Shown here: one piece after another, positions 15,602 through 60,935 of the stretch
Position numbering within the stretch: the first letter of the stretch is position 1
How the letters are laid out: each line of letters starts with the position of its first letter
Source of the DNA: an uncultured Acidobacteriaceae bacterium
Lineage (GTDB): Bacteria; Acidobacteriota; Terriglobia; Terriglobales; Acidobacteriaceae
Direction of reading: 5' to 3'
DNA: 64,000 bases
Assembly (NCBI GenBank): GCA_963782175.1
Contig: CAWAIX010000010.1
Coordinates: 154,399 to 218,398, forward strand
Notes under the pieces: model-generated
Database searches by the model: none
Seen by the model: only the letters and a program-made list of their open reading frames with translations
What the model was told of the DNA's origin: nothing
Position numbers and translations under genes: made by a program

Positions 15602-15618
15602 GGGACGGATTCGGACAG

Positions 15619-36200: not shown

Positions 36201-36361
36201 GGCGTCCGCTCGGCATCACCATCGTCGGCGGCCTCATTTTCAGCCAGATGCTTACCCTCTACACTACCCCCGTCGTCTACCTGTTTATGGATCGCTGGCG
36301 GCTGCGCGTAATGGGCAAGACCCACGATACCTTCAACCCTGAAGCGGGCGAGATCGCGTGA
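33272..36361 (+). CDS. mdtC: RND permease, second of the tandem pair (MdtC-like)
   Basis: 1029 aa, intact. [17 protein letters not shown], two 6-TM bundles, [16 protein letters not shown] and [14 protein letters not shown]. Confidence 0.9.
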
Positions 36362-40442: not shown

Positions 40443-40456
40443 TGCTGATATCTCTC

Positions 40457-42025
40457 CTATCGGCCTAGAAATGTCTTTAACGTTCCAATCTCTTTCTCAG
40501 CCCGCTCCATCTCGTCCTGGGCTTGCTGAATGTCGTTCTGGCTGAGCGCGCGGTCGGCTTCGCTCAGGTACGAATTCATGCGGTTGAGCGACGCCAGCAC
40601 GTCGCCCCTCATGTCGAGGCCCTGCGCCTGCTGCTGGCCGCGTACCTGCTGGATTCCCGACCGGATGCTGTCGGCTTCCGCGCTCAGCTGAATCATGCGC
40701 TCGCGCGCCTGGGCAATCTCCTGCCGCGATGGCCCCGGCGGCGAAGCCTCCAACTGCGGTCCGGAGGTCGTTTCCGGAGCCCGTGGAGGCCGTGGGTGCC
40801 CGGCCGGAGCGTTCGCCGGCTGAGTCGCGGGCGGCTGGTCGTTCGGGATCACTCCCGACGCGCCGCTAGCCGGGGTGGCGCTGCTCAGCGGATTCGGAGC
40901 CGTGGCTGCGGTTGTAACCGCCGGTTGGGTCGCCGTTCCGCTGGCGCCTCCGGTGGATGGTGCTGCGGAACTCGAGTCCGTTACAGGCGCTTTCTGGTCC
41001 GCATGCGTCGAAAACATGCGCGGCAGCACGGTCGCCGCTGCTATCAGCGCGACGATTGCCGTAGCGGCACCGAGACCCAGCCACAGGCTGCGGTGTCCTT
41101 TGCTGGCCGCTGGCACGAAAGGCGTGACCGGCGGGGGCATGACTGAAACTGGAGCGGACGCGGGCACGGCAACAGGGGCAAACCGCGATGCGGTAGGATC
41201 GCTCTTCGCCGGCTGCAGGCTGCGCAGCGCGCCACGGAACTCGTCGGCCGTCTGGAAACGCCCCTCGGGGGACTTCACCATCGCCCGCAACACAATGTTG
41301 TTGAGCTCCTGCGGCAACGCCCGGTTCACCTGCATGGGCGGCTCTGGCGCTTGGGTCAATTGCGCATTCAGCACCCCGTACGCCGTGTCGCCCTGGAACG
41401 GACGGCGTCCGGTCAGCATTTCGTACATCGTCACGCCAAAGGAGTAGATATCCGACCGCGCATCCACCGTGCCGCCGCGCACCTGCTCGGGCGACATGTA
41501 GTAGACCGAGCCCATCGTCGTTCCTGGCCGCGTGAGTTGCAGGTCATTGGTGGACTTCGCGATGCCGAAATCCATCAGCTTCACCAGTCCGTGCGACGTG
41601 ATCATGATGTTGGCCGGTTTGATGTCCCGATGGGTCACGCCTTTGCTGTGCGCATAACTCAGCGCCGCCAGCACCTGCATCGAATAATTCACGACCTCAT
41701 CAACCGGAATCGGCGCGGCGTTGGCCCGTTTCTCGAGCGTCACGCCCTCCACGAATTCCATGATCATGATCAGCCGGTTTTCGAACTGAAAAGCTGTGCG
41801 CAGCTGCGCGATATTTGGGTGGTCGAGCGCAGCCAGGGTGCGGATCTCCGCCGTAAATCGCGCCGCAAGCTCCGGCTCGCTCGCAAAATCCGGCAGCAGC
41901 ACCTTCATCGCCTCGGTGCGCCCCGAGATGATGTTGCGGGCGCTGTAGACCTGGCCCATGCCTCCGGCGCCGAGGAGCGCCAGAATCTCGTAATCGCCAA
42001 CGCGTGTGCCGGGTTCCAAAGCCAT
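40457..42025 (-). CDS. Hanks-type Ser/Thr protein kinase, single-pass membrane protein (PpkA-like position next to the T6SS)
   Basis: LGAGGMGQVYSA, AMKVL, HRDIKPANIMI, DFGIAK and SPEQ. TM segment LWLGLGAATAIVALIAAATVL. Low-complexity plus helical extracytoplasmic tail. Confidence 0.9.
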   Translation of the reverse strand: MALEPGTRVGDYEILALLGAGGMGQVYSARNIISGRTEAMKVLLPDFASEPELAARFTAEIRTLAALDHPNIAQLRTAFQFENRLIMIMEFVEGVTLEKRANAAPIPVDEVVNYSMQVLAALSYAHSKGVTHRDIKPANIMITSHGLVKLMDFGIAKSTNDLQLTRPGTTMGSVYYMSPEQVRGGTVDARSDIYSFGVTMYEMLTGRRPFQGDTAYGVLNAQLTQAPEPPMQVNRALPQELNNIVLRAMVKSPEGRFQTADEFRGALRSLQPAKSDPTASRFAPVAVPASAPVSVMPPPVTPFVPAASKGHRSLWLGLGAATAIVALIAAATVLPRMFSTHADQKAPVTDSSSAAPSTGGASGTATQPAVTTAATAPNPLSSATPASGASGVIPNDQPPATQPANAPAGHPRPPRAPETTSGPQLEASPPGPSRQEIAQARERMIQLSAEADSIRSGIQQVRGQQQAQGLDMRGDVLASLNRMNSYLSEADRALSQNDIQQAQDEMERAEKEIGTLKTFLGR

Positions 42026-42432: not shown

Positions 42433-43218
42433 ATGGAAGCCCAGAGCGTACTCAAGCTGGAAGTCGCCGCCCTAACCGACGTGGGTTGCAAGAGATCCAA
42501 TAACGAGGACAGCTTTGGTTACGACCTCAACACCCAGATTTTCGCCGTCTGCGACGGGATGGGTGGCATGGCCGCGGGCGAGGTTGCGAGCAGCACCGCG
42601 GTCGCCGAACTGGTGCGATGTTTCAACCAGCAACCCGCGCAAATGCAGGCCGAGCCGCGGCTGTACCAGGCAATTCTTTACGCGAACACCCAGGTATGCA
42701 TGCTGTCCCGGGAAAGTGACGACCTCCGCGGCATGGGAACCACAATGGTCTCGGCCTGCGTGGACGGCCGGAAGATCGTCATCGGCAACGTTGGCGACAG
42801 CCGCGCCTATTTTCTCCGCAAAGGCAGGTGCGCGCAGGTGACGCTGGACCACTCCTACGTGGCCGAGCAGGTGCGGAACGGCATCATGAGCCCGGACGAC
42901 GCCGGCGCTTCACCCCTGCAGTCGTTGATCACCCGCGCCATCGGTACCGCGGAGTCCGTCGAGCCCGACCTTTTTACCGCGGAGTTGGAGCCGGGCGACA
43001 TCGTGCTGCTAACCACCGACGGGCTCACCCGCTATGCCGATTCCGACGTGATCGCGAGGCTCGTGCTGGGTAAGCCGGATCTGCAGCAGGCATGTCAGTC
43101 GTTAATCGATATCGCGAAGCAGCATGGCGCGGTCGACAACGTGACCTGCCTTCTGCTCCGATTCAGCGAAGCCGACGAAGCCACGCCGGCGGCAGTCGCT
43201 CGATCTGTAACCTACTGA
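42433..43218 (+). CDS. PP2C-family Ser/Thr phosphatase (PppA/Stp-like)
   Basis: TDVGCKRSNNEDSF, AVCDGMGGMAAGEVAS, GTTMV, GDSRAY, LLTTDGL and DNVTCLL. Divergent from the kinase gene; its 3' end overlaps the tssM 3' end by 7 nt. Confidence 0.9.
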   Translation: MEAQSVLKLEVAALTDVGCKRSNNEDSFGYDLNTQIFAVCDGMGGMAAGEVASSTAVAELVRCFNQQPAQMQAEPRLYQAILYANTQVCMLSRESDDLRGMGTTMVSACVDGRKIVIGNVGDSRAYFLRKGRCAQVTLDHSYVAEQVRNGIMSPDDAGASPLQSLITRAIGTAESVEPDLFTAELEPGDIVLLTTDGLTRYADSDVIARLVLGKPDLQQACQSLIDIAKQHGAVDNVTCLLLRFSEADEATPAAVARSVTY

Positions 43219-46200
43219 GTTACCTTTTGCACGCAATGCAATCCGCTCAGTCCTCCCGGCATCAGCAGGCTCGCCCCAGGTCCAGTCAACTCAAGCCGCA
43301 CAATCGGAGTGTTGCCCGTAACCGTCGTGGAGGTATTGGTTAGCCCCACCGGATACGCCAGCGTTGGCGGGTTCCCGTGCTCAACCTGGCCTTTGGCGAT
43401 AAGGTGAAACAACGCCCACGGTCCGGAGAACTGGGCAAGCGGAAGCGGCGCGTTGCCGTAAGTCACAATCAGCTGCGCCTGCGAGCTCTGCCCTGACCAT
43501 GTGAATTGTTTCGAGACATCCGCTCCGGACAACTGCTGCGAATCGAGAATCAGCGTCGCTGACGGGATGTTCTGCGAGCGCAGGATGTGGATCGTAAAGG
43601 TCAGCGTGGGGCTCGTTGTTCCGCTGGGGTATAGCGCGGTGGAAATACCCGCTGCTTTATTGAAGAACTGCAAAAACGCCGGGTTCACTTTCTGCGCAGC
43701 ATTGAATGCGGGAGCATACGTTGTGCCCTGCTGTATCAGAAGTTGCTTCAGCTTGGCGTCATAGAACTGCCACAGGGCTCCTGAACCAGGCTGGAAGACT
43801 GCGGAAATTTCGGCGGGGCTTGCCTCGGCGGCGGCATTCGCCGAGAAGGGGAACTTTGTCAGTACAGGGCTCAGCGCGGCGCAGAGTTCGCCGCCTCCAA
43901 CCGGGCCAGGTTTGGCCAGGCCGTCCACGCTGGTGATCGGGTCCTGAAGCAGTTTGAGTGAAGTCTGGTCCACGTGCGCCTGCGGATCAAGATCGAATGC
44001 CTGCGCGGTCTGACTGGCGGCGCCGTGCGCGCTCACCGCGGCTGAGGCTATGGGCTGTAACTGGTCCGGAGTCGGCGGGGTGGGATTCGAGGCAACAAGG
44101 GAGACGGCGCCTTGCAGGGCCATCAGGCCGTTAATGTATGTTGCGTTCTTGTCGTTTACCAGCTTCACCGTGCAGCTATCCGGTACGGCGAGAACTTGTG
44201 CCGGCTGGAACTCCTTGGAGATTTCCGGATTGGCCACTGCGGTGTTCTGCGAAATGGTACAGAAGAGCGCAAGCAGCGGTGTGTTTGGGTTCGAAAGTGT
44301 CTGCAGTTTTGCGCCTGCGTCTCTGAGGCTCTGATAGCGGACCACCTGCGCCGACTTCAAGAACGTGCGCCACTCCGACTGGTAATCGGCCAGATAGCGG
44401 CCGGCCAGTTGCGCGGTGAGTGCCCTCGGATCGAGCGACGGCGGCGCCTGATCTCCCAGCACCCACGCTTCGCCGCTGAAATACTTCTCCGGATGCAGGA
44501 TCGCGTCCTGCATAAACGCGAAGCCGCCCTTTGTGAAAGCTCCCTGCACGATATGCGGTTCGATCACCACGGCTGACGATCCCGGATACAGCCGGTTGAA
44601 GTCGATCGGCGGAGCCGCCTTGTTCGCCGCGTTGATCATCTGTTGATAAATACGGGCGATGCCGCCGAAGCTCGCCAGATACGCGCGCGCATGCGTTACC
44701 GTCGGCGTCACCGGCGCGATCGAGTACGGATTCCCCACGCGCAGTTCATTCGCATAAAAGTCGAATTGTAACTGTGCAAGTTGCCTTTGTTCTTGGGTCT
44801 CTGGGGCGCGGCCGTTCTGCCAATACTGCATCAATACCGGAGTGAGAAAATCCGCCGTGCTCTTTTCCGGATTCGTAGTCGTAATCAGGTAAGCCTTCAG
44901 CGGATTGTAGCCGGCACTGTAGTCCGAATCCGGCTGCGCAGAAGCGGGAAGGGCGTTCAGCGCAGTCACAAGATTATTCTGCGTATTCGTCAACAGCAGC
45001 TTCTGGAAGCGATCGAAGTAAATGCGGCGTGCCGCTTCGAGCATCTGGTCGCCGTGGTATAGCCCCCAGCGGTACATCAGCGGGGGACCCTGCTGACGAT
45101 AATTCTCTAGCTGCACGAGCGCGGTCCGAACCTGATTCAGTGCTCCCAGGTCTTTCGTCGAAGCAAGCATCGTCGGGGGCACTGTCGTTGTGGGCAGTGC
45201 GCTGGCTGCCGATGCGATTTCGTGCTCCAGCTTTGAGTTGTTGCCATAGGAAATCACGAGGCAGATCAGATAAAAGAACAGCAGCAGCGACACCGTCCCG
45301 AAGACAAAGCGGCGAAACACATGCGTTCTGCCGCTGTCACTGGTCCTCGCCAATGCGCTGCGGTCTCCCAGGACAACCACAGGAAACAGCTTCGGCAGGA
45401 AGCACCATTGCGCCACTTTCTGGGTGACAACTTGCGGATGGGGAGGCGCGCTGGCTGCCTGCGCCTGTTGCACGCTGAACATTCGCGTGGCCCCGGCGTC
45501 GGCAGGCGCGGCCTTCGGCGCCTGCGCCGGAGCGCTGACCATTTGCTCGACCATGTGCGCGCGCACACCCGTGAAGTAGAAGCCGCGCAGGTAAGGATTC
45601 GCATTCAGATGGCTTGGGCGCGCCAGCTCCACGAGGTACGATGCCAGGTTGTTCCGCAGTTTTTTCAACTCGCGCGGAAATTCGTACACCGGATCCACGT
45701 TCCTCTGATCGTTCTCTCGCGCCAGCACCTCAAGCCGATATTCGCCAAGCGAGAAGATCAGCTGGTCGAGAGAATTCGTAACCTCGGCTGTGGCTCTTTC
45801 CGCATACACGCCGCTCGAAGCATCGTTGCGCGCGAAGGCCATGCCAAGCGCCTGCGATGCATCTTCCGTCGTCAGATTGCGAACGTACTCCGCGAAGTCG
45901 GGCACGCGATCGAGCTTGGTGAAGACCACATAGACCGGAACCTCGGTGCCAAGTTGTTGCGCCAGGTCCCTCAGCATCTGGTTCGTCGCGCGGGCCGACG
46001 CCAGGACTGTCTCCGTCGCCGTCGTGCCGAGAAACTGCTCGCAGCTGATGCAGACCACCGCTGCGCGAACCGGGGCCTGTGTACCCATCGCCGAGCGATA
46101 TGCTTTCGGCCGTGTCTTGCGGATCAGCTTCTGCCACAACCCCGGGCTCTTGCGGACCGCGTCGCCGGCCTCGACGATGACGGCCTGCTGCGTGTACCAG

Positions 46201-46628
46201 AGATTCACGACCGGCGTAGGCATCACGTCCTGGTCGCGATAGATCTGCCCGGCCAGCAGCTCGGGATCGAGCCCTGACTTGAGCACTACCGTGGTCTTCG
46301 CCGAGTTTGATTCGCCCATCAGATAAAGCAGTGGCAGCCCATCGAGCGACTTCGCGCCCGTCCGCTGCGCTGAGGCCAGCCTCTTTTCGGCATCGTGCAG
46401 CAGTGTGTCCATCTCCGTGCCGCCGGTCACGTTTCGGGTGGCTGCGTCGCGCCGTTTTTCGCGGAAATGGAGAACCAGAATGATCGTTGCCGCCGCCGCT
46501 CCGAGCACGACGAGAAGAATGCGCAGAATCAGAAGGGAAGTCCCTTCGATGTGCAGCAGCAGGCCGGCCAGCCACGCGAGCACAACCGAGAAAAGAAAGA
46601 TCAGGACAGAAATCAGAATCGAGACCAC
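43212..46628 (-). CDS. tssM: T6SS membrane-complex protein TssM (IcmF)
   Basis: 1138 aa. Two or three N-terminal TM helices, a P-loop-like LYLMGESNSAKTTVV (Ala where the canonical Gly sits), IcmF-related central and C-terminal regions. Downstream of tssL. Confidence 0.88.
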   Translation of the reverse strand: MVSILISVLIFLFSVVLAWLAGLLLHIEGTSLLILRILLVVLGAAAATIILVLHFREKRRDAATRNVTGGTEMDTLLHDAEKRLASAQRTGAKSLDGLPLLYLMGESNSAKTTVVLKSGLDPELLAGQIYRDQDVMPTPVVNLWYTQQAVIVEAGDAVRKSPGLWQKLIRKTRPKAYRSAMGTQAPVRAAVVCISCEQFLGTTATETVLASARATNQMLRDLAQQLGTEVPVYVVFTKLDRVPDFAEYVRNLTTEDASQALGMAFARNDASSGVYAERATAEVTNSLDQLIFSLGEYRLEVLARENDQRNVDPVYEFPRELKKLRNNLASYLVELARPSHLNANPYLRGFYFTGVRAHMVEQMVSAPAQAPKAAPADAGATRMFSVQQAQAASAPPHPQVVTQKVAQWCFLPKLFPVVVLGDRSALARTSDSGRTHVFRRFVFGTVSLLLFFYLICLVISYGNNSKLEHEIASAASALPTTTVPPTMLASTKDLGALNQVRTALVQLENYRQQGPPLMYRWGLYHGDQMLEAARRIYFDRFQKLLLTNTQNNLVTALNALPASAQPDSDYSAGYNPLKAYLITTTNPEKSTADFLTPVLMQYWQNGRAPETQEQRQLAQLQFDFYANELRVGNPYSIAPVTPTVTHARAYLASFGGIARIYQQMINAANKAAPPIDFNRLYPGSSAVVIEPHIVQGAFTKGGFAFMQDAILHPEKYFSGEAWVLGDQAPPSLDPRALTAQLAGRYLADYQSEWRTFLKSAQVVRYQSLRDAGAKLQTLSNPNTPLLALFCTISQNTAVANPEISKEFQPAQVLAVPDSCTVKLVNDKNATYINGLMALQGAVSLVASNPTPPTPDQLQPIASAAVSAHGAASQTAQAFDLDPQAHVDQTSLKLLQDPITSVDGLAKPGPVGGGELCAALSPVLTKFPFSANAAAEASPAEISAVFQPGSGALWQFYDAKLKQLLIQQGTTYAPAFNAAQKVNPAFLQFFNKAAGISTALYPSGTTSPTLTFTIHILRSQNIPSATLILDSQQLSGADVSKQFTWSGQSSQAQLIVTYGNAPLPLAQFSGPWALFHLIAKGQVEHGNPPTLAYPVGLTNTSTTVTGNTPIVRLELTGPGASLLMPGGLSGLHCVQKVTQ

Positions 46629-46637
46629 CGCCGGCTC

Positions 46638-47327
46638 CTATCTCGCGTTCATGCTGGCATTCTGTATACCGGATACCCCAGAACCAAGGGCAAGCTCGAA
46701 GCCACCGAATGCGATCACCGTCAGTCCGGCGAGCACGCAGGCAGTGATCAGCAGGGCGCGACTCCATCGATCGGTTGCCCGCGTAGCCCGCACTTCCGGA
46801 GCAGCCGTTGGCGGCACGAGATAAGCCGCGCCGCGGATGCGGTGAATCTTGTCCCGCGCCTGTCGCAGCATCTGGTGCAGTTCGCCGGAGTCGCCCAGCG
46901 CATACCGGCCGCGGTAGCCCGCCTGCAGGCACAGGCAGTAGACCTCCAGCGTGTCGGCAACCTCGGGAGAATCCTGCTGCGTAAGCAGCGCCTGCAACTT
47001 GCGGAAATAGGTCTCGCCGGCGTTGTGATCGCCGAACAGCTCTTCCTGCAGAGACTGCCGCGCCCAGTCCGTAAATGCCGGACTCCGCAGGTTCAGCACG
47101 CTCTCATCCATGAAAGCGACCACCGCAAAGACCGCCATCTGCACCGATTCGCTCGAGTAGCCGAGCGAGCGTGCCTCCTGCATTGCCGCTTGCAGCGAAC
47201 CCCGCATCTGCGAGCGGAAACTGGCTGAGTCCATTACCTGTTGCCGCTGAAAGCGCACCCGCAGAATGGCAGTCATCACTTCCTGGAAACAATATGCGAG
47301 GCTGTTGACGCGGACCGTGCTCATCAC
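46638..47327 (-). CDS. tssL: T6SS membrane-complex protein TssL (DotU family, no OmpA extension)
   Basis: LAYCFQEVMTAILRV, VFAVVAFMDESVL, LEVYCLCLQAGYRGRY, and a single C-terminal TM. ATGA overlap with tssK. Confidence 0.88.
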   Translation of the reverse strand: MMSTVRVNSLAYCFQEVMTAILRVRFQRQQVMDSASFRSQMRGSLQAAMQEARSLGYSSESVQMAVFAVVAFMDESVLNLRSPAFTDWARQSLQEELFGDHNAGETYFRKLQALLTQQDSPEVADTLEVYCLCLQAGYRGRYALGDSGELHQMLRQARDKIHRIRGAAYLVPPTAAPEVRATRATDRWSRALLITACVLAGLTVIAFGGFELALGSGVSGIQNASMNAR

Positions 47328-48676
47328 GATGCCTCCACAATGATGGTGAGGTCGAAGTCCGGCTTCGAAATTTCACCCGGGATGTAAACGCCCACCTTGC
47401 GGGTCTGCAGAATGTGCTCCCAGCAGGGCCCCGTCGTCTCAATGGCGAAGTATTGCATATCGGCCTCGGCCCGGATAGCTGTGGGCGGCACCTGCAAATG
47501 TCTTAGTGTCATTCCCGGCAGGGCGCGTTTCACCAGTTCAGGTACAAAGCGCGCCGAGCAAACCTTGATCAGCTTCGGCACCAGGTTCAGAAGCTCCGAT
47601 TCGCCGAGCCCAGACCGCACTCCGAACACCCAGCGCGCCCGCCGCAGGCACCGCTCGTCCACTACATCCGCCGCGTAGATATATGGCTCCGCCGGATGAA
47701 ACTCAGGCTTCACTGTGTTCGACGGAACCACAATTTCCAGGTGCTTCCTGATGTGCGCGTCGAGCACGCGAAACGCCGGCCCTGGAGCGCGATGATCGTA
47801 GGACGGGAGCTGGCGCGGGTCGGAATCGACAGCGAAGGTGCATAACGCTCCAGCCAGCCGCGACAGCTCGACGAACACCTCCTCAGGATGCGCATGCCGC
47901 GTACTGCTCAGGTGCTCGAGAGGGGGAATCGCGCTGTGCAGCGCATGAAGAAACCAGTAATTCGCCACATCGAGAGCGGAGGTCCCCGCCTCGAACCGTC
48001 CGTGGCGTCTTGCGCTTCGGGCAATCGTGCTGCTCTTTTCGCCGATGGTCTCGATGAGGCGCTTCACCAGCAACATCAGTGGCTCGCTCGCGCTGAGCCG
48101 CAGGCAGGTGGGTATGAATTCCTCGTCATAGATCAGGTGCCCGCGCCCGTCGCGCAGAACCTGGGCGATAGGGATCGAGAGCATCTCCGGCGTCAGCTCT
48201 GCCTCCGTCACCAGGCCGATATTTTTTTGCCCAAGATCCACCTCACGCTCGTCGATCCCGTTGGTCTCGTCGCGCAAGGTGCGCGGCATACGCGAAAACC
48301 GCGTGCCGTTGGTGCCATTCTCAAGATTGCAATCGAAGCCGCTGTCGCGGCGTCCCGGAACCGCCAGATACAACGGCAGCACCGAATCGGTTGTCGGAAA
48401 AACCTCGGCGAGGTTGCGCGGCGGCGGCGGCGGATCGGAATTGGGCAGCTCGAAGGCTAGTCCATCGGGAAAAATACCCGATGCGTGCAGCAGAACTGCG
48501 TTGCCGTTTCGGATCGCCTTCTGGTCGAGATCGGCGTGTAATAACCCCCACGGTTCATGCCACAGGCTCGCTGCCAGGAATGCGATGGAGTCTTCAAAAT
48601 AGCGGGACTGCGTCTGAAAATGGTGAGGGCCCAGGTACATCCCTTCTGACCACACAACCCGCGACAGGAATTTCAT
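47324..48676 (-). CDS. tssK: T6SS baseplate protein TssK, paralogue 2 (operonic with tssL-tssM)
   Basis: MKFLSRVVWSEGMYLGPHHFQTQSRYFE..., ASGIFPDGLAFELP. 450 aa. Confidence 0.88.
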   Translation of the reverse strand: MKFLSRVVWSEGMYLGPHHFQTQSRYFEDSIAFLAASLWHEPWGLLHADLDQKAIRNGNAVLLHASGIFPDGLAFELPNSDPPPPPRNLAEVFPTTDSVLPLYLAVPGRRDSGFDCNLENGTNGTRFSRMPRTLRDETNGIDEREVDLGQKNIGLVTEAELTPEMLSIPIAQVLRDGRGHLIYDEEFIPTCLRLSASEPLMLLVKRLIETIGEKSSTIARSARRHGRFEAGTSALDVANYWFLHALHSAIPPLEHLSSTRHAHPEEVFVELSRLAGALCTFAVDSDPRQLPSYDHRAPGPAFRVLDAHIRKHLEIVVPSNTVKPEFHPAEPYIYAADVVDERCLRRARWVFGVRSGLGESELLNLVPKLIKVCSARFVPELVKRALPGMTLRHLQVPPTAIRAEADMQYFAIETTGPCWEHILQTRKVGVYIPGEISKPDFDLTIIVEAS

Positions 48677-48918: not shown

Positions 48919-50613
48919 ATGGACTCGTCCAAGTCTCCTTTCGATGATCCCGATCTTCACCGCAAGAGCGAATCCGCCGCCAGCGACCCCTCCAGTGCAA
49001 CCGCAATCTTCGGAACAGTCTCGCCGAAGCCGGCGCAGCCCGAAGACGACATCCTGAAGTCGCTCCTCGCAAATCAAAGCGCTCCATCGGCGACTCCGTC
49101 CGAGCCGCCTTGGAGCCCGGTAACGACGCCTTCTACTGCCCAAGCGCCCGCTCCACCCCAATTGTCTGCCTCTCCTAATCCGACCAGTCCTGGCGGCTTC
49201 ACTCAGATGTTCCAGGCCCTCCAGAATCCTGCCGAACCCGCGTCGCCTTCTGCGCCTTCATCTGCGCCCGCGCCCCTCAACCCCCCGCCCAACCCTCCGA
49301 CTGACCTGTCAGCTGTCTTCACGCAGGTTGTGGTCGAGAAGACGGCCTTTTCGCCGCCGCCCGCTCCCGTTGCGGCCGGGGCTGGCGAGTTCACGCAGCT
49401 TTTGCAGACGCTCAACACTTCGCCCCAGACTCCCGGGACGCAGCCCGCTCCGCCTCAAACGGCGACACCAGCCTCGCCGCCTGCATCCGCGCCCGGCGCA
49501 TTCACGCAGTTATTCAGCTCGGTTTCAGCACCGGCGCCACCCTCTCCCGCCCCACCCCCTCCGGCTCCGGCCTCTGCGGTCGTAGACTCGCAGCCGACGG
49601 CCGCGGTTCCGATGCCTAAGTCCCCCGCCTTTGCGCCGCCCCCAGCCACCAGGCCAGAGCAGGGGCCGCCTGGCGACTTCACCCGCGTGTTTCAGTCGCT
49701 CACATCGGCAAAGGAAGCGCCTCCGCCTGCACCCGCACCTGCGTTTTCGCCGCCGCAACCGGCGTCAGCGCCGGCATCGGGCCCGGGAGCCTTCACGCAG
49801 ATGTTCGCCGCGAAGCCGCTGGAGAGCACCCCGGCAGAAGATTCTCTGAAGTCGCTTCGGCCTGAGCCGCCTGCGCCGCCCTCGTCGGGCACCTTTTCGT
49901 TCCATACTCCTCCATCGCGTCCGCCCGAACCCCGCCCGATTGCCCAGGGCGGCTTCACGCAGCTTCTCCAGGCGCTGAACGAGAAGGAAAACCAGGAGGA
50001 GACGCTGGCGCAATCTCCGGAGCCCTTCATGCCTCCGCCTTCCCCATCGCCCGCCGCCCCTAATGCGGGTATGGCCGCGGGCATGGGAGGCTTCACGCAG
50101 CTCTTGCAGACCCTCTCCGCCGACCCTGCCGCGCGCCCCGCAGCCCAGCCGTCTCCGATGCCGCCCGCAGCCTCGCCGCCGGCAACTTCCTCGCCTGCAA
50201 CTTACCCGACGTCCGGCGCTCCCGGCGAGTTCACCCGCGTCATACAGGGCGATCAGTTTCGCGCACTGCATGGCCAAAACGCCGCAGCCGGACAGGTTGC
50301 GCCGGGACCTCCCGTTCTTCCTCCGCAACAGGCCGCGGCGCCGCGGCAGCCCCTGCAATTTCCGTCAGCTCCCGCGTTTTCTCCCGCGCCCGCAATGCCA
50401 CAGATCCCTGTCGCTCATCCTCCAGCGGCCGCTCCGCCGCCTGCGATGCCGCATTACCAACCGCCTGCGTTCCAGTTCCCGCCTGCGCCCGCGCCGCCCG
50501 CACCGCCTCCATCCAGCAAGCTGCAGCAATATCTGCCGCTCATTCTGGTGCTGAACATCTTCGTGCTGCTGGTAATTGTGGTGATCCTCATCTTTGTCTT
50601 AAGGCACCACTAA
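48919..50613 (+). CDS. Tail-anchored proline-rich protein with 9-11 G-x-F-T-[QR]-h-h-Q repeats (unknown function, T6SS-embedded)
   Basis: 564 aa, no signal peptide. Clear motif copies: GGFTQMFQAL, AVFTQVVV, GEFTQLLQTL, GAFTQLFSS, GDFTRVFQSL, GAFTQMFAA, GGFTQLLQAL, GGFTQLLQTL, GEFTRVIQG. Two degenerate copies: TAIFGTV, GTFSFHT. Pro/Ala/Ser linkers between them. C-terminal TM LPLILVLNIFVLLVIVVILIFVL followed only by RHH. Confidence 0.8.
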   Translation: MDSSKSPFDDPDLHRKSESAASDPSSATAIFGTVSPKPAQPEDDILKSLLANQSAPSATPSEPPWSPVTTPSTAQAPAPPQLSASPNPTSPGGFTQMFQALQNPAEPASPSAPSSAPAPLNPPPNPPTDLSAVFTQVVVEKTAFSPPPAPVAAGAGEFTQLLQTLNTSPQTPGTQPAPPQTATPASPPASAPGAFTQLFSSVSAPAPPSPAPPPPAPASAVVDSQPTAAVPMPKSPAFAPPPATRPEQGPPGDFTRVFQSLTSAKEAPPPAPAPAFSPPQPASAPASGPGAFTQMFAAKPLESTPAEDSLKSLRPEPPAPPSSGTFSFHTPPSRPPEPRPIAQGGFTQLLQALNEKENQEETLAQSPEPFMPPPSPSPAAPNAGMAAGMGGFTQLLQTLSADPAARPAAQPSPMPPAASPPATSSPATYPTSGAPGEFTRVIQGDQFRALHGQNAAAGQVAPGPPVLPPQQAAAPRQPLQFPSAPAFSPAPAMPQIPVAHPPAAAPPPAMPHYQPPAFQFPPAPAPPAPPPSSKLQQYLPLILVLNIFVLLVIVVILIFVLRHH

Positions 50614-50620
50614 GGCGCGG

Positions 50621-51976
50621 TTATTCCGGGTTTGCGAACAGAATGATCAGCTCCATCTCGGGATTTGGGATCTCTCCCGGCACATAGACTCCGAAGTTGC
50701 GCGAGCGCAGAATGGACTCCCACACCGGACCCGAGTGCTCCAGGCTGAAGTACTGGTAGCGCAGCTTCACCGGGATGGCCCGCGGGGGCACCGGAACGTG
50801 CAGCATCTTCAGCCCGGGCAATGCTCTCGTTATCAATTGCTCGATATGCGTCGCCGAGCAGGCCTTGGTGAGGACCGGAGTCTTGCTGATCAGATCGGCT
50901 TCACGCAGATCCGACGAGATCGCCAAGTAGAAGCGTGAGTTCTCGAAGTACTTATCCTTCTCGATCGCAGTCGCGTAAATATTCTCCCGCAGTAGCTTGA
51001 GCGGCAGCGCGACAAAGTTGCTCGGCACAACTGTCTCGAGCAGCTCGGCAATAATTGCGTCGAGCGCGAGAAAGCACGGGCCGAGCTTTTCGTGTTCGTA
51101 CTCAGGCAGGTCGCGCGGCTCGATCTTTGGAGAAAACGTCGTCAACGCGCCGGCCAGCCTGAGCATTTCCAGGAAAAGCGCCTCCGGATGAACCCGGCTG
51201 CTCTGCAGCATGTGCCGCAGCACCGGCAGGTGCGAGTTGATCGTGTACAGGAGCCAGAAGTTCGCCACGTCCGATGCGCTGAAGTCGGCCAGCGATTGGT
51301 TGCGTTGCCGCCGCGTAGCGGCAAGCTGCCCGCTTCTGCCAACGAGAGTCTCGATCAGGCCGCGCAGGATGCCCGTCAGCAGCTCATTTCCCTTCAGGTT
51401 CAGCATCGGCGGCACATACTTCGTGTCCAGCCGATAGCCGCCGGCCTCCGTGCGCTCGATCTCCGCCAAAGGCAGCAGCACCGACCCCTCGAGGTTCTCG
51501 CCCTCGGCCAGAATCTGCAGGTTCTTGCGCGCCAGCGACACCGGCTTCTCGATGCCGGTGCTGTTTTCGTCGCGCAGCATCTGCAGCTCGGAATAAAAGC
51601 GGGTATTGATTCCCGTGCGCTGCAGTCCGATATTGATCCCGCCCGGCCGGTCCTGCGGAATCGCGAGGAAGAAGGCGCAGCGGTTACTCCCTGCTGGAAA
51701 GCACTCCTCCAGGGTCCGCGAGCGCGGTGGCGCGTCTGAGGCCGGCATGTCGAGCATCAGGCCGTCCGGAAACACGCCTGACGCCTGGCTCAGGTTCAGT
51801 TGGCCTTCGCTCAGCGCTGTCCCATCAATCTGTAATGACGAAAAGCCCCAGTTGCGGAAGGCAAGCGCATCGGCGAGAAAGCGCAGGCTCTCCTCGAAGA
51901 AGCGGTCCTGCGCCTGCAGGTGCTGCGGAGATAAAAAGACACCCTTCGACCAGACAACGGGTTGCAACTGTCGCAT
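50621..51976 (-). CDS. tssK: T6SS baseplate protein TssK, paralogue 1 (stand-alone, divergent from tssB)
   Basis: MRQLQPVVWSKGVFLSPQHLQAQDRFFE..., ASGVFPDGLMLDMP. 451 aa, colinear with paralogue 2 but strongly diverged. Confidence 0.88.
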   Translation of the reverse strand: MRQLQPVVWSKGVFLSPQHLQAQDRFFEESLRFLADALAFRNWGFSSLQIDGTALSEGQLNLSQASGVFPDGLMLDMPASDAPPRSRTLEECFPAGSNRCAFFLAIPQDRPGGINIGLQRTGINTRFYSELQMLRDENSTGIEKPVSLARKNLQILAEGENLEGSVLLPLAEIERTEAGGYRLDTKYVPPMLNLKGNELLTGILRGLIETLVGRSGQLAATRRQRNQSLADFSASDVANFWLLYTINSHLPVLRHMLQSSRVHPEALFLEMLRLAGALTTFSPKIEPRDLPEYEHEKLGPCFLALDAIIAELLETVVPSNFVALPLKLLRENIYATAIEKDKYFENSRFYLAISSDLREADLISKTPVLTKACSATHIEQLITRALPGLKMLHVPVPPRAIPVKLRYQYFSLEHSGPVWESILRSRNFGVYVPGEIPNPEMELIILFANPE

Positions 51977-52384: not shown

Positions 52385-52909
52385 ATGGCTAGAGAAAGTA
52401 CGCAGCATAAACTGGATCGCGTCCGTTCGCCGCGCGTGCACATCACCTACGATGTTGAAATCGGCGACGCCATCGAACTCAAGGAACTGCCGTTCGTCAT
52501 GGGTGTCCTCGGAGACCTGACCGGCCAGCCCGAGCAGCCTCTGGCCGCCCTCAAGGACCGCAAATTCGTCGAGATCAATCCCGACAATTTCGACACTGTC
52601 CTCAAAGGCATGCAGCCTCACCTGGCTTTCTCTGTGCCGAACCGCCTGACCGACGACCCCAGTGCCGGTCAGATTGGCGTAAACCTCCGCTTCGAGAGCC
52701 TCGATGACTTTTCACCGGAGAACGTCGCCAAGCAGGTCGCCCCATTGAAAGAGCTCTTCGATCTGCGCACGCGCCTCTCGGATCTTCGCGGCAGCCTCCA
52801 GGGCAACGACAAGCTCGATGAGGCCCTGTTCGACGCGGTTTCCAACACCGAGTCGCGCGAGAAGCTTCGCTCCGAACTCGGGACCGGCAAAGACGGAGGT
52901 GGGCAATGA
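52385..52909 (+). CDS. tssB: T6SS contractile sheath small subunit TssB (VipA)
   Basis: STQHKLDRVRSPRVHITYDVEIGDAIELKELPFVMGVLGDLTG. Confidence 0.93.
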   Translation: MARESTQHKLDRVRSPRVHITYDVEIGDAIELKELPFVMGVLGDLTGQPEQPLAALKDRKFVEINPDNFDTVLKGMQPHLAFSVPNRLTDDPSAGQIGVNLRFESLDDFSPENVAKQVAPLKELFDLRTRLSDLRGSLQGNDKLDEALFDAVSNTESREKLRSELGTGKDGGGQ

Positions 52910-54399
52910 GCACGACCAAAGCACCGGCTGCGGCAGCGAGCGCATCCGTTGAACAGGTATCCGAGCAGAGTCTGCTGGATCAGATTGTCTCTCAGGGCCG
53001 CTTCAATCGCGACGCTGCAACTCTGGAGCGCGGCCGCGACATGGTCAAGGAGTTCGTCAACCAGGTCCTCGATGGCCAGATGACCCTGTCCCGCGACGCC
53101 GAAGCCACCATTCAGGCTCGCATCGCGCAGATCGATCGGCTCATCTCGCTCCAGTTGAACGAAATCCTGCACTATCCAGCCTTTCAGAAGCTCGAATCAA
53201 CCTGGCGCGGTATCAAGTACCTGATCGATCAGTCCGAAACCAGCGACATGCTCAAGATCAAGGTCCTGAACGTCTCGAAGCGCGAGTTGCTGAGAGATCT
53301 GCAGCGGGCTTCCGAATTCGATCAGAGCGCACTGTTCAAAAAGGTCTATGAAGAAGAGTTCGGCATCTTCGGCGGAGCGCCTTTTGCCGCGCTTGTCGGT
53401 GATTACGAATTCGGCCGCGGTCCCGAAGATGTAGAACTGCTGGAGCGGGTGTCTCAGGTTGCTGCGGCAGCCCACGCGCCCTTCCTGTCGGCGGCGTCAT
53501 CTGACCTGCTTAACCTCACCAGCTACACCCAGCTCGGCTCACCGCGCGACGTCGGTAAAATCTTCGACTCGACCGAATACGCCAAGTGGAAGTCCTTCCG
53601 CCAGTCGGAGGATTCTCGTTACGTCGCTCTTACGCTGCCACACATCCTCATGCGCCTGCCCTACGGCAAAGATACAAAGCAGGTCGACGCCTTCGACTAC
53701 GAAGAAGCTGTCGATGGCAGCGATCACTCGAAATACCTCTGGGGCAACGCCTCTTATGGTCTGGCCGCGCGCCTGACAAATTCGTTTGCAAGGTACGGCT
53801 GGTGTGCTGCCATCCGCGGAGTTGAGGGCGGCGGCCTTGTCGAAGGCCTGCCCGCTCACACCTTCCGCACCGACGAGGGCGACATCGCGCTCAAATGCCC
53901 GACCGAAGTCGCCATCACCGACCGCCGCGAAAAGGAGCTCGCCGACCAGGGCCTCGTGCCTCTGGTGCACTGCAAGGGAACCGACTACGCGGCCTTCTTC
54001 AGCGTTCAGACCGCCAACAAGCCCAAGCTCTATGACAAGGAAGCGGCTAACGCCAACGCCCGCCTTTCGGCTCAACTGCCTTACATCCTTGCCATGTCTC
54101 GCTTCGCCCATTACCTCAAGGCGATGATGCGCGATAAGATCGGCAGCTTCATGAGCCGCCAGGACTGCGAAAAGTTTCTTAACCAGTGGATCAGCAATTA
54201 CGTTTGTGCGGACGACAACGCCTCCCAGGCCGCCAAGGCGAAACTGCCTTTGCGGGAGGCTGCGATCCAGGTGTCCGAAGTACCCGGCAAGCCTGGCGCT
54301 TACCGCGCGGTCGCGTTTCTGAAGCCGCATTTCCAACTCGACGAGCTCTCTGTTTCGCTTCGTCTGGTGGCCGATTTGCCGGCGTCGGCGCGGAAGTAG
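52906..54399 (+). CDS. tssC: T6SS contractile sheath large subunit TssC (VipB)
   Basis: 497 aa. ILHYPAFQKLESTWRGIKYL, EEFGIFGGAPF, LTLPHILMRLPYG. ATGA overlap with tssB. Confidence 0.93.
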   Translation: MSTTKAPAAAASASVEQVSEQSLLDQIVSQGRFNRDAATLERGRDMVKEFVNQVLDGQMTLSRDAEATIQARIAQIDRLISLQLNEILHYPAFQKLESTWRGIKYLIDQSETSDMLKIKVLNVSKRELLRDLQRASEFDQSALFKKVYEEEFGIFGGAPFAALVGDYEFGRGPEDVELLERVSQVAAAAHAPFLSAASSDLLNLTSYTQLGSPRDVGKIFDSTEYAKWKSFRQSEDSRYVALTLPHILMRLPYGKDTKQVDAFDYEEAVDGSDHSKYLWGNASYGLAARLTNSFARYGWCAAIRGVEGGGLVEGLPAHTFRTDEGDIALKCPTEVAITDRREKELADQGLVPLVHCKGTDYAAFFSVQTANKPKLYDKEAANANARLSAQLPYILAMSRFAHYLKAMMRDKIGSFMSRQDCEKFLNQWISNYVCADDNASQAAKAKLPLREAAIQVSEVPGKPGAYRAVAFLKPHFQLDELSVSLRLVADLPASARK

Positions 54400-54479
54400 C
54401 ATCGCCAAAGCATCGCCGGACGTCCCTGACTACGGCATGAGATACCAGCAGTGCGCTAACCAGTAAGAGAGGAGCCGAC

Positions 54480-54956
54480 ATGGCGGTAGATTATTTCCTG
54501 AAGCTGGATGGAATTGATGGTGAATCTTCGGATGCGAACTTCAAGAATCAGATACAACTTATGAGCTGGAGTTGGGGTGCATCCCAGGTCTCCTCGGTCG
54601 CGGGAACAGGCGGATCCGGCGCGGGCAAGGCCGACCTGAGCGATTTCAGCTTGATGACCTACTTCGATAAGTCAACGCCGAAGTTCTTCAAGTCCATTGG
54701 TCTGGGCACACACATCGCTTCGGGCACACTGAGTGCAGTCAAATCCGGCGCGCAAGGCAAGCCCTACCTGAAGGTCGACTTTGCCGAGATCTTTGTCACC
54801 AGCCTACAGATGTCGGGATCGAGCGAAGTTCCCACCGTGAGCATTTCATTTACATACAACGAAATCAAGATCGACTACTCGGTGCAGGACGAGAAAGGCA
54901 ATCTCAAGAGTACGGGCCCGATCACTTACAACACGAAAGAAAACAAGCTCACGTAA
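54480..54956 (+). CDS. hcp: T6SS tube protein Hcp (TssD)
   Basis: MAVDYFLKLDGIDGESSDANFKNQIQLMSWSWGASQ. 158 aa. Confidence 0.93.
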   Translation: MAVDYFLKLDGIDGESSDANFKNQIQLMSWSWGASQVSSVAGTGGSGAGKADLSDFSLMTYFDKSTPKFFKSIGLGTHIASGTLSAVKSGAQGKPYLKVDFAEIFVTSLQMSGSSEVPTVSISFTYNEIKIDYSVQDEKGNLKSTGPITYNTKENKLT

Positions 54957-54967
54957 GGGCGACCCTC

Positions 54968-55696
54968 ATGGACGCGCTTTCGCTCTATCGTGCCGGCCAG
55001 CTCAAGCCGGCAATCGACGCGCTTGGTGACGAGTTGAAGAAGCAGCCACTCGACACCAGGCGCCGTACTTTTTTGTTCGAGCTGCTTTGTTTCGCCGGCG
55101 ACTACGATCGCGCTGCCAAGCAGCTTGACGTACTCTCCGACTCCAGCAAGGAAGCCGCTGCCGGGGCCATGCTCTATCGTGCCGCCCTGCATGCCGAGAG
55201 AACCCGGCAGGAAATGTTCGCCAGGGACGAACTTCCGCTGGGCACTGTCCATCCATCGCCTTCCGGCCAATGGAATGGCGCCGATTTCGCAGAGTTCTCC
55301 GATGCCGACCCGCGCATCGGCGCGCATCTCGAAGCATTCATCGCCGGAAGTTACACCTGGATTCCGTTCGCGTATGTGGAGTCCATCGAGGTTGAAGCCC
55401 CGAAGCGCCTGCGCGACCTTCTCTGGATGCCTGCCATCCTGCACACCACCTCCGATTTCCGCCTGCAGGATCTCGGCGAGGTTCTCCTGCCGATGATTTC
55501 ACCGCTTTCCTGGAAGCATTCCGACGATGCGGTCCGTCTTGGTCGCGCCACCGTCTGGGAAGACGATCCGAAATACGGACAGATACCGCTCGGACAGAAA
55601 ATCTTGCTGTGCGGCGACGAAGAGGAGCCATTTCTGCAGCTACGCCACCTGACTTTCCACCACGCCGGGGAGACGGCCGAAAGTGCCACTTCGTGA
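54968..55696 (+). CDS. tagJ: T6SS accessory protein TagJ (ImpE family)
   Basis: Position after hcp as in the H1-T6SS. N-terminal TPR-like LYRAGQLKPAIDALGDELKKQPLDTRRRTFLFELLCFAGDYDRA. ImpE-type C-terminal half. Confidence 0.75.
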   Translation: MDALSLYRAGQLKPAIDALGDELKKQPLDTRRRTFLFELLCFAGDYDRAAKQLDVLSDSSKEAAAGAMLYRAALHAERTRQEMFARDELPLGTVHPSPSGQWNGADFAEFSDADPRIGAHLEAFIAGSYTWIPFAYVESIEVEAPKRLRDLLWMPAILHTTSDFRLQDLGEVLLPMISPLSWKHSDDAVRLGRATVWEDDPKYGQIPLGQKILLCGDEEEPFLQLRHLTFHHAGETAESATS

Positions 55697-57528
55697 TGAC
55701 CTCCTGAATCCGGTATCTGGCGAAAATCCTTCGGGCGTGAGCCTGCGATACGAGCGCATCTGCGATCAGATCAAAGAGGCGCGGACCGAAGAAGACGAAA
55801 ACATCCCCAGCGGTGACTGGCAGCGCCAGGTCAAGCGCGCTGATTTTGCCCTCGTCATCAAGCTCGCTGGTGAAGCTCTCGCGACCAGGAGCAAAGATCT
55901 GCAGCTCGCCGCGTGGCTGACCGAAGCCCACGTCAAGCGCGAAGGAATTCCACTGATTGCGGCTTGCTTCAAGCTCATGCAGGACCTGCAGGAGCAGTTC
56001 TGGGACACGCTCTATCCCGAAATCGAAGACGGAGACGTCGGCATGCGGGCTGTCCCCATCGAATGGGCCGCAAACCGTGTCGCGAACATCCTCCGCGAAT
56101 CATCCGCCATAACTCGCGACGGCCTCAACTACTACCAATACAAGGAATCGCGTGCCGTCGGCTACGAAGCCGACATCGAGTACAACGACGCGAAGCGCGA
56201 AGCGCGCGAACAAGCCATCAAGGACGGCAAAGTCACCGGCGAGGATTTCGACAAGTCTTTCGCGTCCACGCCCAAGTCGTTTTACCTGGGCCTCGAGCAG
56301 GCCATTCAAGTAGCCTCGCAAACCATTGAGAACCTGCAGATCTACTGCGAAGGCAAGTACGGAGACGACGGCCCGGGATTCGGCAAACTGCGGACCTCAC
56401 TCGAAGAGGTCGGCCAGGTCATCACCAGCCTGCTCAACGAAAAGCGCAAGACCGAGCCCGACGAAGTCGCCGAGGCGCCGGTGGAAGAAGAGCCGGAGCC
56501 CGAACCGGAGCCCGTTGCAGAGGTCCAGCAAGAGCCAATCGCCAAAGCCGCTTCAGTGACCAAGCCGCAGAAAGCCGAAATCCGTCTCGGCCGAGCCCAC
56601 CGATTGGGATGACGCGATCGGCCGCATCCAGGCATGCGCGAAATTCCTCCAGAAAGATCGCTCATCCAGTCCCGTCGCCTATCTGCTGCAGGCATCGGTG
56701 CGGCTGGGAGAAATGCGCGAGCAGGGAAGCCCCGCCTCTTACGATTTTCTCGTCTCACCTTCAACCGAAACGCGCCAGAACCTCAAGAAGCTCGCATCCG
56801 AATCCAACTGGGAGGAATTGCTGACTGCCGCAGTCACAGCCGCCGGAGAGCCCTGTGGACGTGCCTGGCTCGATGTCCACCGCTATGTCTGGAGAGCCAG
56901 TTACGAAGCCGGCCACAGCACGGTCGCCGCCGCCGTCATCGCGACCGTTCAGTCTCTCCTGAAGGACATCCCCGAACTCCCCACCTGGACCCTCAACGAC
57001 GACACTCCGACCGCGAATCCCGAAACGCAGCGCTGGCTCGAAGAGATGGTCATCCCCAAACCGCCGGAGCCTGTAGTCATCGTTCAGGAAGCACCTCCGC
57101 CGCCCGAGCCCGTCTATGCTTCGGCTCGCGACAAATCTGAAGAGCCACACGAAGATGCTCCTCCGGACGTGCTCGACATCGCCAGGGACATGATCCGCCG
57201 CGGCCAGCTCTCTCAGGCCATCCAGCTTCTGGTGCGCGATGCCGCCCAGCAGCCCAGCGGACGCGCGCGCTTTCAGCGCCGCCTGCAGGTAGCGCAGCTC
57301 TGCGTAAGCGCCGGACAGAACAAAGTAGCGCACCCCGTCCTCGAAGAACTGGTTAAGGAGATCGATCAGCGCCGGCTCGAAGAGTGGGAGGCCAGCGAAA
57401 TGATTGCGCCGCCCATGGCCTTGCTGCTCAAATGCCTCGATCCGTCGACCAACAACGGAGTCAGGGATGAGCTGTTCGCAAAGCTGTGCCGCATCGATCC
57501 CACCGCGGCGATGGATATTTCTCAATAG
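55683..57528 (+). pseudogene. tssA: T6SS protein TssA (ImpA_N domain plus VasJ-like C-terminal region); frame broken near 56585-56592
   Basis: N-terminal PVSGENPSGVSLRYERICDQIKEAR...SKDLQLAAWLTEA...FWDTLYPE (ImpA_N). ORF 55683-56612 stops shortly after a Pro/Glu linker. The +1 frame is open from about 56575 and continues SAEPTDWDDAIGRIQACAKFLQKDRSSSPVAYLLQASVRLGEMRE... into ORF 56698-57528. Confidence 0.8.
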
Positions 57529-57550
57529 GTATGAAAAGGAGCCCGGAGGT

Positions 57551-58015: not shown

Positions 58016-58017
58016 CC

Positions 58018-60902: not shown

Positions 60903-60935
60903 CTCGAAGCAGTTCTACCCACGGGAGTAAGACCC

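Follow-up and report, generated by a model that had tools for sequence, protein, structure and literature searches.

A 64,000-nucleotide stretch from an uncultured Acidobacteriaceae bacterium (GenBank assembly GCA_963782175.1, contig CAWAIX010000010.1, positions 154,399–218,398 of the forward strand; hereafter the window, numbered from its first letter) carries a type VI secretion system (T6SS) cluster interrupted, between two tssK paralogues, by a gene that matches no known family. This gene (REP, referred to here as the FT-motif gene) is a complete open reading frame (ORF) of 564 aa at 48919..50613 (+) with an ATG start. It is a lineage-specific T6SS accessory gene of Acidobacteriota, found almost only inside T6SS clusters of soil members of the phylum, and its product belongs to a sizeable, wholly unannotated and previously undescribed family of several hundred sequence clusters. 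The protein probably serves the secretion machine either as a scaffold in its assembly or as a target of its regulation. The coordinates of the motifs and of the neighbouring genes are collected in Table 1.

A scan of GTDB with one genome per species returned 55 loci, all from Acidobacteriota and mostly from Acidobacteriaceae, with T6SS genes around the match in 55/55; where both flanks are visible, the FT-motif gene has the tssK-tssL-tssM operon on one side and, on the other, a second tssK beside tssB. Look-ups of progressively more distant members added 12 contexts, 11 of them T6SS loci, giving a total of 66/67 with the gene at the tssK-tssL-tssM/tssBC junction, down to members at E ~1e-17 and across TssK identities down to ~47%. 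An earlier note on this DNA, made from the letters and a list of ORFs, had held that a T6SS role would be doubtful if homologues with the same motif array were common and not associated with T6SS genes; homologues are common, but they occupy the same slot in T6SS clusters. Across 1.07 Mb of related loci, no ORF other than the FT-motif gene contains the motif more than once, and in a six-frame scan of the window the motif is confined to ORF 48919–50613. As expected of an accessory component, the gene is conserved inside T6SS clusters and matches none of the core families (TssA-M/PAAR).

Among 5.8 billion proteins 102 relatives of the FT-motif protein were found, all named ‘hypothetical’, and a profile search of 1.84 billion cluster representatives (clusters counted at 50% identity) gave 1043 clusters at E<=1e-3, falling to 583 at E<=1e-10 and to 218 at E<=1e-30. 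No named source lies outside Acidobacteriota: the cultured Granulicella tundricola MP5ACTX9 carries a member on plasmid pACIX901 (WP_013572716.1; 816 aa, ~ten motifs), and further carriers are Paracidobacterium acidisoli 4G-K13, Granulicella paludicola DSM 22464 and Acidobacteriaceae bacterium ZG23-2. Full-length members range from 340 to 1103 aa. For the window protein, Pfam returned no family at E<=0.1, NCBIfam returned none, and sequence searches of PADLOC and of PDB chains gave no match; 74 diverse family members likewise have no Pfam match, and literature searches by motif strings and by topic retrieved no description of the protein. The exact window protein is absent from a collection of 15 billion proteins. 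The suggestion of an undescribed, T6SS-linked family, already made from the ORF and its neighbours, is borne out by these searches and by the genomic contexts.

The FT-motif gene is real and under selection: its linkers vary freely, but its motifs, including the extended one at the end of the array, and its anchor are conserved. Homologues are 30–67% identical, and hundreds of them keep the frame, the motifs and the anchor. Nearly all of the first 102 have 3–13 motif copies and end in a conserved C-terminal anchor (KLQQYLPLIL..N.F...RHH). A C-terminal transmembrane segment is present in all 121 newly found cluster representatives; it lies within the last 45 aa in 271/277 family proteins of >=300 aa, and 269 of the 271 with such a segment have two or three basic residues among the last four. 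The mid-helix Asn of the anchor is lost in a more distant subgroup. Islands of conservation coincide with the motifs (the last of them extended, GPGEFTRVISGSALRE), with a short Pro-rich stretch and with the anchor, and are separated by linkers that drift in both sequence and length; the most conserved cytoplasmic element of the family is the extended FT motif 9 (aa 434–449).

Over 289 family proteins the motif consensus is P-G-[ESG]-F-T-[QR]-[ML]-[FL]-[QS]-[AT]-L. The residue following Phe in G-x-F-?-[QRKE]-h-h is Thr in 1230 of 1255 family copies, Ser in 4 and another residue in 21, while the Phe position tolerates V, L, Y or I across the family. The form proposed originally, G-x-F-T-[QR]-h-h-Q, is thus correct in its core and not in its trailing Gln, which is the commonest residue at that position yet occurs in only 37% of family copies. 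Each motif position also keeps its own flavour among orthologues (e.g. AQGGFTQLLQAL vs GPGEFTRVISGS). One member (P0289; L074, 3891–6224 (+)), situated between two tssK genes, has an extra folded-looking N-terminal region of ~120 aa before the motif array, with no Pfam match.

Half of the window protein consists of Pro, Ala and Ser (P 133, A 93, S 59 per 564 residues). The regular expression FT[QR][LMVI][FLVI] finds nine exact matches (F94, F134, F158, F195, F254, F292, F346, F392 and F438), compared with a maximum of two in 20,000 residue shuffles of the same protein. Gaps between copies are 24–59 aa (coefficient of variation 0.24; P=0.0008 vs random placement); in the family as a whole they have a median of 47 aa and a minimum of 21. 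Tandem Repeats Finder detected no DNA-level tandem repeat in the gene, and the repetition is therefore kept at the protein level. Two degenerate copies noticed earlier, SSATAIFG (aa 25–32) and GTFSF (aa 324–328), and the second small repeat D-[IS]-LKSL (aa 44–49 and 308–313) are likewise present and are conserved in homologues.

AlphaFold2 (AF2) predicts no fold for this protein: mean per-residue confidence (pLDDT) is 50.5 with 12 sequences and 52.8 with 67 sequences, and the global score (pTM) 0.20 and 0.23, respectively. Helices are predicted only at aa 45–51, 93–101, 158–164, 256–259, 347–359, 391–399 and 534–563, mapping to five FT motifs, the DILKSLL element and the transmembrane segment, the last with pLDDT >90 and followed only by the tail RHH. 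There is no second hydrophobic segment; the N-terminus is not hydrophobic and no signal peptide is recognised. The predicted layout (no signal peptide, single C-terminal transmembrane helix, very short tail) is that of a bacterial tail-anchored protein, and since only RHH lies beyond the helix and a signal peptide is lacking, a cytoplasmic N-terminal chain would be expected. The disordered Pro/Ala/Ser-rich chain and the tail-anchor topology that the earlier note had read from the translation thus both agree with the structure prediction. Predicted disorder, conserved helix-prone motifs and variable linkers are together the hallmarks of a short-linear-motif array.

Some roles for the motifs or the chain can be set aside. 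The motif helices are ~8–10 residues long and near-neutral, with a moderate hydrophobic moment (0.09–0.69), which makes binding to the membrane as amphipathic helices unlikely. A TonB-like span of the periplasm was rejected because the protein lacks a signal peptide and has its sole hydrophobic segment at the C-terminus. The motif shows no likeness to the N-terminal helix of TssB (ligand of TagJ), and the segment SLLDQIVSQ of the TssC N-terminal helix (ligand of ClpV) is only vaguely similar. The protein is also without the signal peptide, lipobox or Pfam match that would mark a TssJ, and of the features of TagA/TsmA it has the hydrophobic C-terminal anchor and no ImpA_N match.

We propose, as a possibility that falls a little short of probable, that the FT-motif protein is tethered to the membrane and works as a multivalent scaffold on the cytoplasmic side of the T6SS membrane complex, resembling Fha in its way of working without being homologous to it. 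In this scheme the single C-terminal helix and basic tail would anchor the protein in the inner membrane, leaving the ~530-residue N-terminal part in the cytoplasm as a flexible Pro/Ala/Ser-rich chain from which, every ~45 residues, a predicted helix-forming P-G-x-F-T-[QR]-hydrophobic-hydrophobic-Q-x-L segment would be displayed. The nine motifs could then act as multivalent docking sites, or ‘stickers’ parted by ‘spacers’, gathering cytoplasmic-face T6SS parts beside TssL/TssM; candidate partners are TssK trimers, other baseplate subunits and the cytoplasmic domains of TssL or TssM. With these parts gathered, the membrane complex would dock to the baseplate more readily or more stably. As a secondary feature, the motif Thr residues may be phospho-acceptors for the co-encoded PpkA-like kinase and PppA-like phosphatase, making binding or clustering switchable.

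Fha has three parts: an FHA domain, a long disordered region and, at the C-terminus, an amphipathic helix that associates with the membrane. Its condensates recruit TssL, TssM, TssE, TssF, TssG and TssK, and the disordered region is indispensable while the FHA domain is only partly required (bioRxiv 10.1101/2023.12.21.572528). The FT-motif protein shares with Fha/TagH a long disordered region combined with a membrane-association element, the company of a PpkA-type kinase and a PppA-type PP2C phosphatase, and a slot adjacent to tssK. In two TagJ-type proteobacterial clusters (L067, L068) the order is tagH-(tssJ)-tssK-tssL-tssM-tagF-PP2C-kinase, with tagH directly upstream of tssK, whereas the FT-motif gene is on the strand opposite tssK. 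The proposed role, nucleation of the membrane complex and baseplate at the inner membrane, would also be common to both. The FT-motif protein differs in having neither an FHA domain nor the TagH C-terminal helical domain (no Pfam match, and only the transmembrane helix in this part of the AF2 model), and its anchor is a predicted true transmembrane tail anchor in place of a peripheral amphipathic helix. It may thus work like Fha without being an Fha.

Looser parallels are found within and beyond T6SS. TssL (DotU), encoded in the same cluster, is likewise a cytoplasmic protein held by a single C-terminal inner-membrane helix, but it has a folded DotU domain (PF09850), whereas no fold and no DotU match were found for the FT-motif protein. 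FG-nucleoporins are ‘stickers and spacers’ scaffolds with multivalent short linear motifs. They resemble the FT-motif protein in carrying short hydrophobic/aromatic motifs at regular intervals on a low-charge flexible chain anchored to a large membrane-embedded machine, and in conserving motifs while linkers drift; the FT motif differs in being longer, helix-forming and centred on an invariant Thr, and self-association or phase separation of the FT-motif protein is only putative. Like the FT-motif gene, TsmK of Acinetobacter, TagL and TagV are conserved among the T6SS loci of a single lineage without being core genes, but their products are folded (a pseudo-ketoacyl synthase, an OmpA-like peptidoglycan binder and an SH3b lipoprotein, respectively) and none is a disordered motif array. 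Such lineage-restricted accessory factors are thought to compensate for membrane-complex differences or missing parts (PMC13584744), and a 2026 review of T6SS accessory factors mentions nothing disordered, tail-anchored or acidobacterial.

Several observations weigh against a scaffold of the Fha kind. The chain is neutral, Pro/Ala/Ser-rich and studded with nine FT motifs, while that of TagH in two clusters is acidic, Pro-rich and motif-free, and no FT motif was found in the Fha/TagH proteins of Rhizobium, Tistrella and Qingshengfaniella plasmids; with differing disordered regions and no FHA/TagH Pfam match, the likeness to Fha is one of analogy only. Position-specific motif flavours point to specific partners rather than generic stickers. 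In a published TssB tree the single acidobacterial plasmid cluster (475 kb, i.e. pACIX901) falls in a branch of subtype i4b (PMC9113992), from which Fha is generally absent (bioRxiv 10.1101/2023.12.21.572528), so that nothing need have been ‘replaced’, and replacement of Fha is to be taken as a functional hypothesis and not as an evolutionary reconstruction. The same tree qualifies the earlier view that the locus mirrors the H1-T6SS of Pseudomonas aeruginosa: TagJ and the kinase/phosphatase pair agree with it, but the Granulicella cluster is placed near i4b (PMC9113992). Outside Acidobacteriota and Gemmatimonadota, the closest TssC to that of the window is from Ralstonia (65%).

Two further points of this kind concern gene context. 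The distant member P0287 (L072, 6555–8042 (+)), with seven GEFTRMFQ-type motifs and a tail anchor, lies outside T6SS among SET, spermine-synthase, PilZ-DnaJ, amine-oxidase and glycosyltransferase genes, with no T6SS gene visible on its 11-kb contig. In one clade (L054, L056 and L059) the FT-motif gene has neither a second tssK nor any recognisable TssK beside it; the place between it and tssB where the second tssK would be expected is taken by a 93-aa ORF and a 489-aa methyltransferase (MTS and PqqD-like domains). Association with tssK duplicates, raised as a question in the earlier note, thus holds for most loci but is not strict. The family is tied to the T6SS locus, not to TssK duplication. 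Finally, architecture and synteny are where reading of the sequence ends, and partner binding, clustering and phosphorylation are all inferred beyond them. Taken as a whole, the original interpretation is partly supported. As a separate observation on the same clade, no recognisable TssK is found near tssL either, and a 449-aa protein of unknown family occupies the TssK position in L056 (8393–9742 (-)).

The motif Thr residues could also be the main point of the protein. Read primarily as a regulatory substrate, it would offer a nine-Thr phospho-acceptor array to the PpkA-like kinase and PppA-like phosphatase, acting as a graded or threshold switch for firing or as a sink for kinase activity, and standing in for the one Thr site that Fha or TssL has elsewhere; we regard this as rather unlikely for the primary role, although multi-site phosphorylation deserves serious consideration as a secondary or alternative one. 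PpkA phosphorylates Fha on Thr (PMC12607579; PMC6082577), and the window cluster has no Fha. Its kinase spans the membrane like PpkA, which would set the catalytic domain beside a membrane-tethered substrate, and the near absence of Ser at the motif position (1230 Thr vs 4 Ser) is not what a simple helix cap, tolerant of Ser, Asp or Asn, would require. A large hydrophobic residue at +3 of Thr is part of the reported mycobacterial Hanks-kinase motif (PMC6888350, review), which fits the FT motif ([QR] at +1, [ML] at +2 and [FL] at +3 of Thr), although this is no more than a resemblance to part of that motif. Among the 41 loci with >=3 kb visible beyond tssM, PP2C was found in 33, a Hanks kinase in 23, and PP2C and/or kinase in 34, and these counts are lower bounds because the view beyond tssM is short. 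In the cluster of a distant member (L071), a 1647-aa Ser/Thr kinase with TPR and PEGA domains (11513–16456 (-)) lies immediately downstream of the second tssK (tssK_b) on the same strand. The near-invariant Thr, the frequent PP2C/kinase neighbours and the absent Fha gene are all compatible with phospho-acceptor sites. Neither enzyme is seen, however, within the 3–4 kb visible beside tssM in 7/41 loci, which counts against the switchable form of the scaffold as well, nor in L069 and L070. No FHA reader domain is there to interpret phospho-Thr; the surroundings of the Thr (G at -2, hydrophobic at +2/+3, L at +6) show more conservation than would be required of a kinase site by itself; and AF2 places it at a helix start, a poor kinase substrate unless unfolded.

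The anchor is the starting point for a different account, in which the FT-motif protein is a structural accessory of the membrane complex, comparable to TsmK or TagL, that makes up for missing TssJ or missing peptidoglycan anchoring: its helix would pack on the TssL/TssM helices, the chain would serve as a spacer or as a collar round the baseplate, and the motifs would self-associate. No TssJ is recognised in the cluster, accessory factors that make up for absent membrane-complex parts are known (PMC13584744), and the anchor is strongly conserved, including the polar mid-helix Asn and the LQQYLP juxtamembrane element. TssJ, however, acts in the outer membrane and periplasm, while nearly all of the FT-motif protein is predicted to lie in the cytoplasm; the mid-helix Asn is not kept in the distant subgroup, and the invariant Thr is left unexplained. 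This account is quite improbable. P0287, with seven motifs and a tail anchor among non-T6SS genes, would suit a reading in which the architecture organises membranes in Acidobacteriota generally and is not a T6SS part as such, the T6SS copies being either a specialised offshoot or a passenger gene that became fixed in the locus. This is very improbable, given that 66 of 67 contexts are T6SS loci with the gene at the same junction at TssK identities down to ~47%, and that a passenger would not hold position and orientation over such divergence. It is scarcely conceivable that the gene is a spurious ORF or encodes a secreted effector or immunity protein. GC-rich DNA does yield long ORFs on both strands in the window, the exact protein is not in the 15-billion collection, and the gene is split by the gene caller on a sister contig; yet conservation of frame, motifs and anchor at 30–67% identity across hundreds of homologues excludes a spurious ORF, and the gene has no toxin or immunity domain and a fixed position in the cluster core, away from VgrG/PAAR where effector/immunity pairs sit.

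The scaffold reading can be carried a step further, to a phospho-switchable sticker-and-spacer scaffold in which the transmembrane kinase, by phosphorylating Thr at many sites, would govern a two-dimensional condensate on the inner membrane. Such a condensate would nucleate membrane-complex and baseplate assembly without Fha, TssJ or TagF, and evolution would thereby have solved the problem of starting T6SS assembly independently; this stronger version is unlikely. Knowledge of T6SS biology rests almost wholly on Proteobacteria and Bacteroidota, and to our knowledge no acidobacterial T6SS has been dissected. Here an abundant soil phylum carries a conserved extra T6SS component, with no fold and no known relatives, at the point where the membrane-complex and sheath operons meet. 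If the FT-motif protein nucleates or gates assembly, the proposed role of Fha as a disordered membrane-associated hub could be filled by an unrelated protein. What is new is an accessory, putatively scaffolding, T6SS factor of unusual architecture, built in an unrelated way, whose function we infer. Nine near-identical motifs with one invariant Thr each, on a fixed anchor, also provide an unusually clean model for multivalency and multi-site phosphorylation in the assembly of a bacterial machine.

The genes flanking the FT-motif gene are, as first described, two tssK paralogues, both encoding full-length PF05936 proteins (E 4e-127 and 6e-140) that are 38–39% identical to each other in tblastn cross-matches. 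To the left are genes for TssL, TssM, a PP2C phosphatase, a Hanks kinase and a CsgG-like secreted protein, and to the right those for TssB, TssC, Hcp, TagJ, TssA, TssE, TssF, TssG and ClpV. On a sister contig (L060, 97.75% identical) the cluster continues with VgrG and a PAAR-like gene. Beyond its transmembrane segment, the window kinase has an extracytoplasmic Pro/Ala/Ser/Thr-rich region and then a coiled coil. The claim that no FHA-domain gene is present stands: none was found in the 42 window ORFs scanned, and none is recorded among the genes downstream of ClpV on the sister contig. Fha, TssJ and TagF families were not recognised among the cluster genes of the window (Pfam scan) or of the sister contig and the Granulicella cluster (precomputed Pfam hits or deposited annotation), the survey taking in all but small ORFs beyond VgrG that are unnamed or have no recorded Pfam hit.

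Table 1 Features of the FT-motif gene and neighbouring genes in the window.
Feature	Position	Strand	Remarks
N-terminal conserved element SSATAIFGTV (aa 25–34)	48991..49020	+	family consensus SATGxFG; F31 nearly invariant
D-I-LKSLL element (aa 44–50)	49048..49068	+	AF2 helix aa 45–51
FT motif 1, SPGGFTQMFQAL (F94)	49189..49221	+	AF2 helix aa 93–101
FT motif 2, variant, LSAVFTQVVVEK (F134)	49309..49341	+	homologue consensus DLAxVFTxV
FT motif 3, AGEFTQLLQTL (F158)	49381..49413	+	AF2 helix aa 158–164
FT motif 4, PGAFTQLFSSV (F195)	49492..49524	+	regular-expression match
FT motif 5, PGDFTRVFQSL (F254)	49669..49701	+	AF2 helix aa 256–259
FT motif 6, PGAFTQMFAAK (F292)	49783..49815	+	regular-expression match
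Second D-S-LKSL element (aa 308–313)	49840..49857	+	homologue consensus DPLxSLKPEP
FT motif 7, QGGFTQLLQAL (F346)	49945..49977	+	AF2 helix aa 347–359
FT motif 8, MGGFTQLLQTL (F392)	50083..50115	+	T393 invariant across 67 homologues; AF2 helix aa 391–399
FT motif 9, extended, APGEFTRVIQGDQFRA (aa 434–449)	50218..50265	+	consensus GPGEFTRVISGSALRE; T439, R440 invariant
Conserved Pro-rich element AFQFPPAPAPP (aa 517–527), just ahead of the membrane anchor	50467..50499	+	
Predicted tail anchor: juxtamembrane SKLQQYLP, transmembrane helix (aa 534–563, conserved N546) and basic RHH	50512..50610	+	
tssK paralogue a, first gene of the divergent tssK-tssL-tssM operon	47324..48676	-	PF05936
tssK paralogue b, convergent with the FT-motif gene, divergent from tssB	50621..51976	-	PF05936
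tssL (DotU), itself C-terminally anchored	46638..47327	-	
tssM (IcmF)	43212..46628	-	
PP2C phosphatase (PppA-like)	42433..43218	+	
Hanks Ser/Thr kinase (PpkA-like), membrane-spanning	40457..42025	-	kinase domain aa 12–258; transmembrane segment ~aa 314–336
tssB, tssC, hcp, tagJ, tssA (frameshifted), tssE, tssF, tssG, clpV (frameshifted)	52385..63594	+	

The mixed gene content of these clusters (TagJ and a PpkA/PppA-like pair, with no recognised TssJ, TagF or Fha; window 39400–64000, L060 and L061) lies outside the usual pictures of T6SS subtypes. The TssK pair is conserved across most family loci, with the b-type copy staying beside tssB, while Gemmatirosa kalamazoonensis (L062) has only a b-type TssK beside tssBC. 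The gene immediately downstream of the membrane-spanning Hanks kinase codes for a CsgG/LpoB-like protein that has a plain signal peptide (39453–42025 (-) for the pair), an arrangement found in at least 12 related loci. The two may form a module that senses the envelope and signals to the kinase, with a role like that of TagQRST.

Some genes of the cluster are broken. The ClpV/TssH gene of the window (60936–63594 (+)) is in two ORFs, with a change from frame 3 to frame 1 near 62455–62462, and the same split is seen on the sister contig; the Granulicella tundricola orthologue is intact (886 aa), and the split is either a shared assembly indel or a real frameshift. TssA (55683–57528 (+)) is represented by ORFs 55683–56612 and 56698–57528 with a frame change between 56462 and 56572, but is intact on the sister contig (614 aa) and in other loci, making an indel or assembly error in the window sequence likely. 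On the sister contig it is the FT-motif gene itself that the gene caller splits.

Elsewhere in the window, the region 11202–18613 resembles a mobile or defence islet, with a DDE transposase (11202–12266), a protein with pentapeptide repeats and a TIR domain (13739–14977 (-)) and a phage-type integrase (17417–18613 (-)); G+C content across 8–18 kb is 0.556–0.573 vs 0.58–0.63 elsewhere. Two RND-pump ORFs lie in tandem at 30344–36361 (+): the first (30344–32848) covers only positions 137–782 of the AcrB profile and may be truncated or frameshifted, and the second, which is full length, has a gene for an outer-membrane efflux protein after it.

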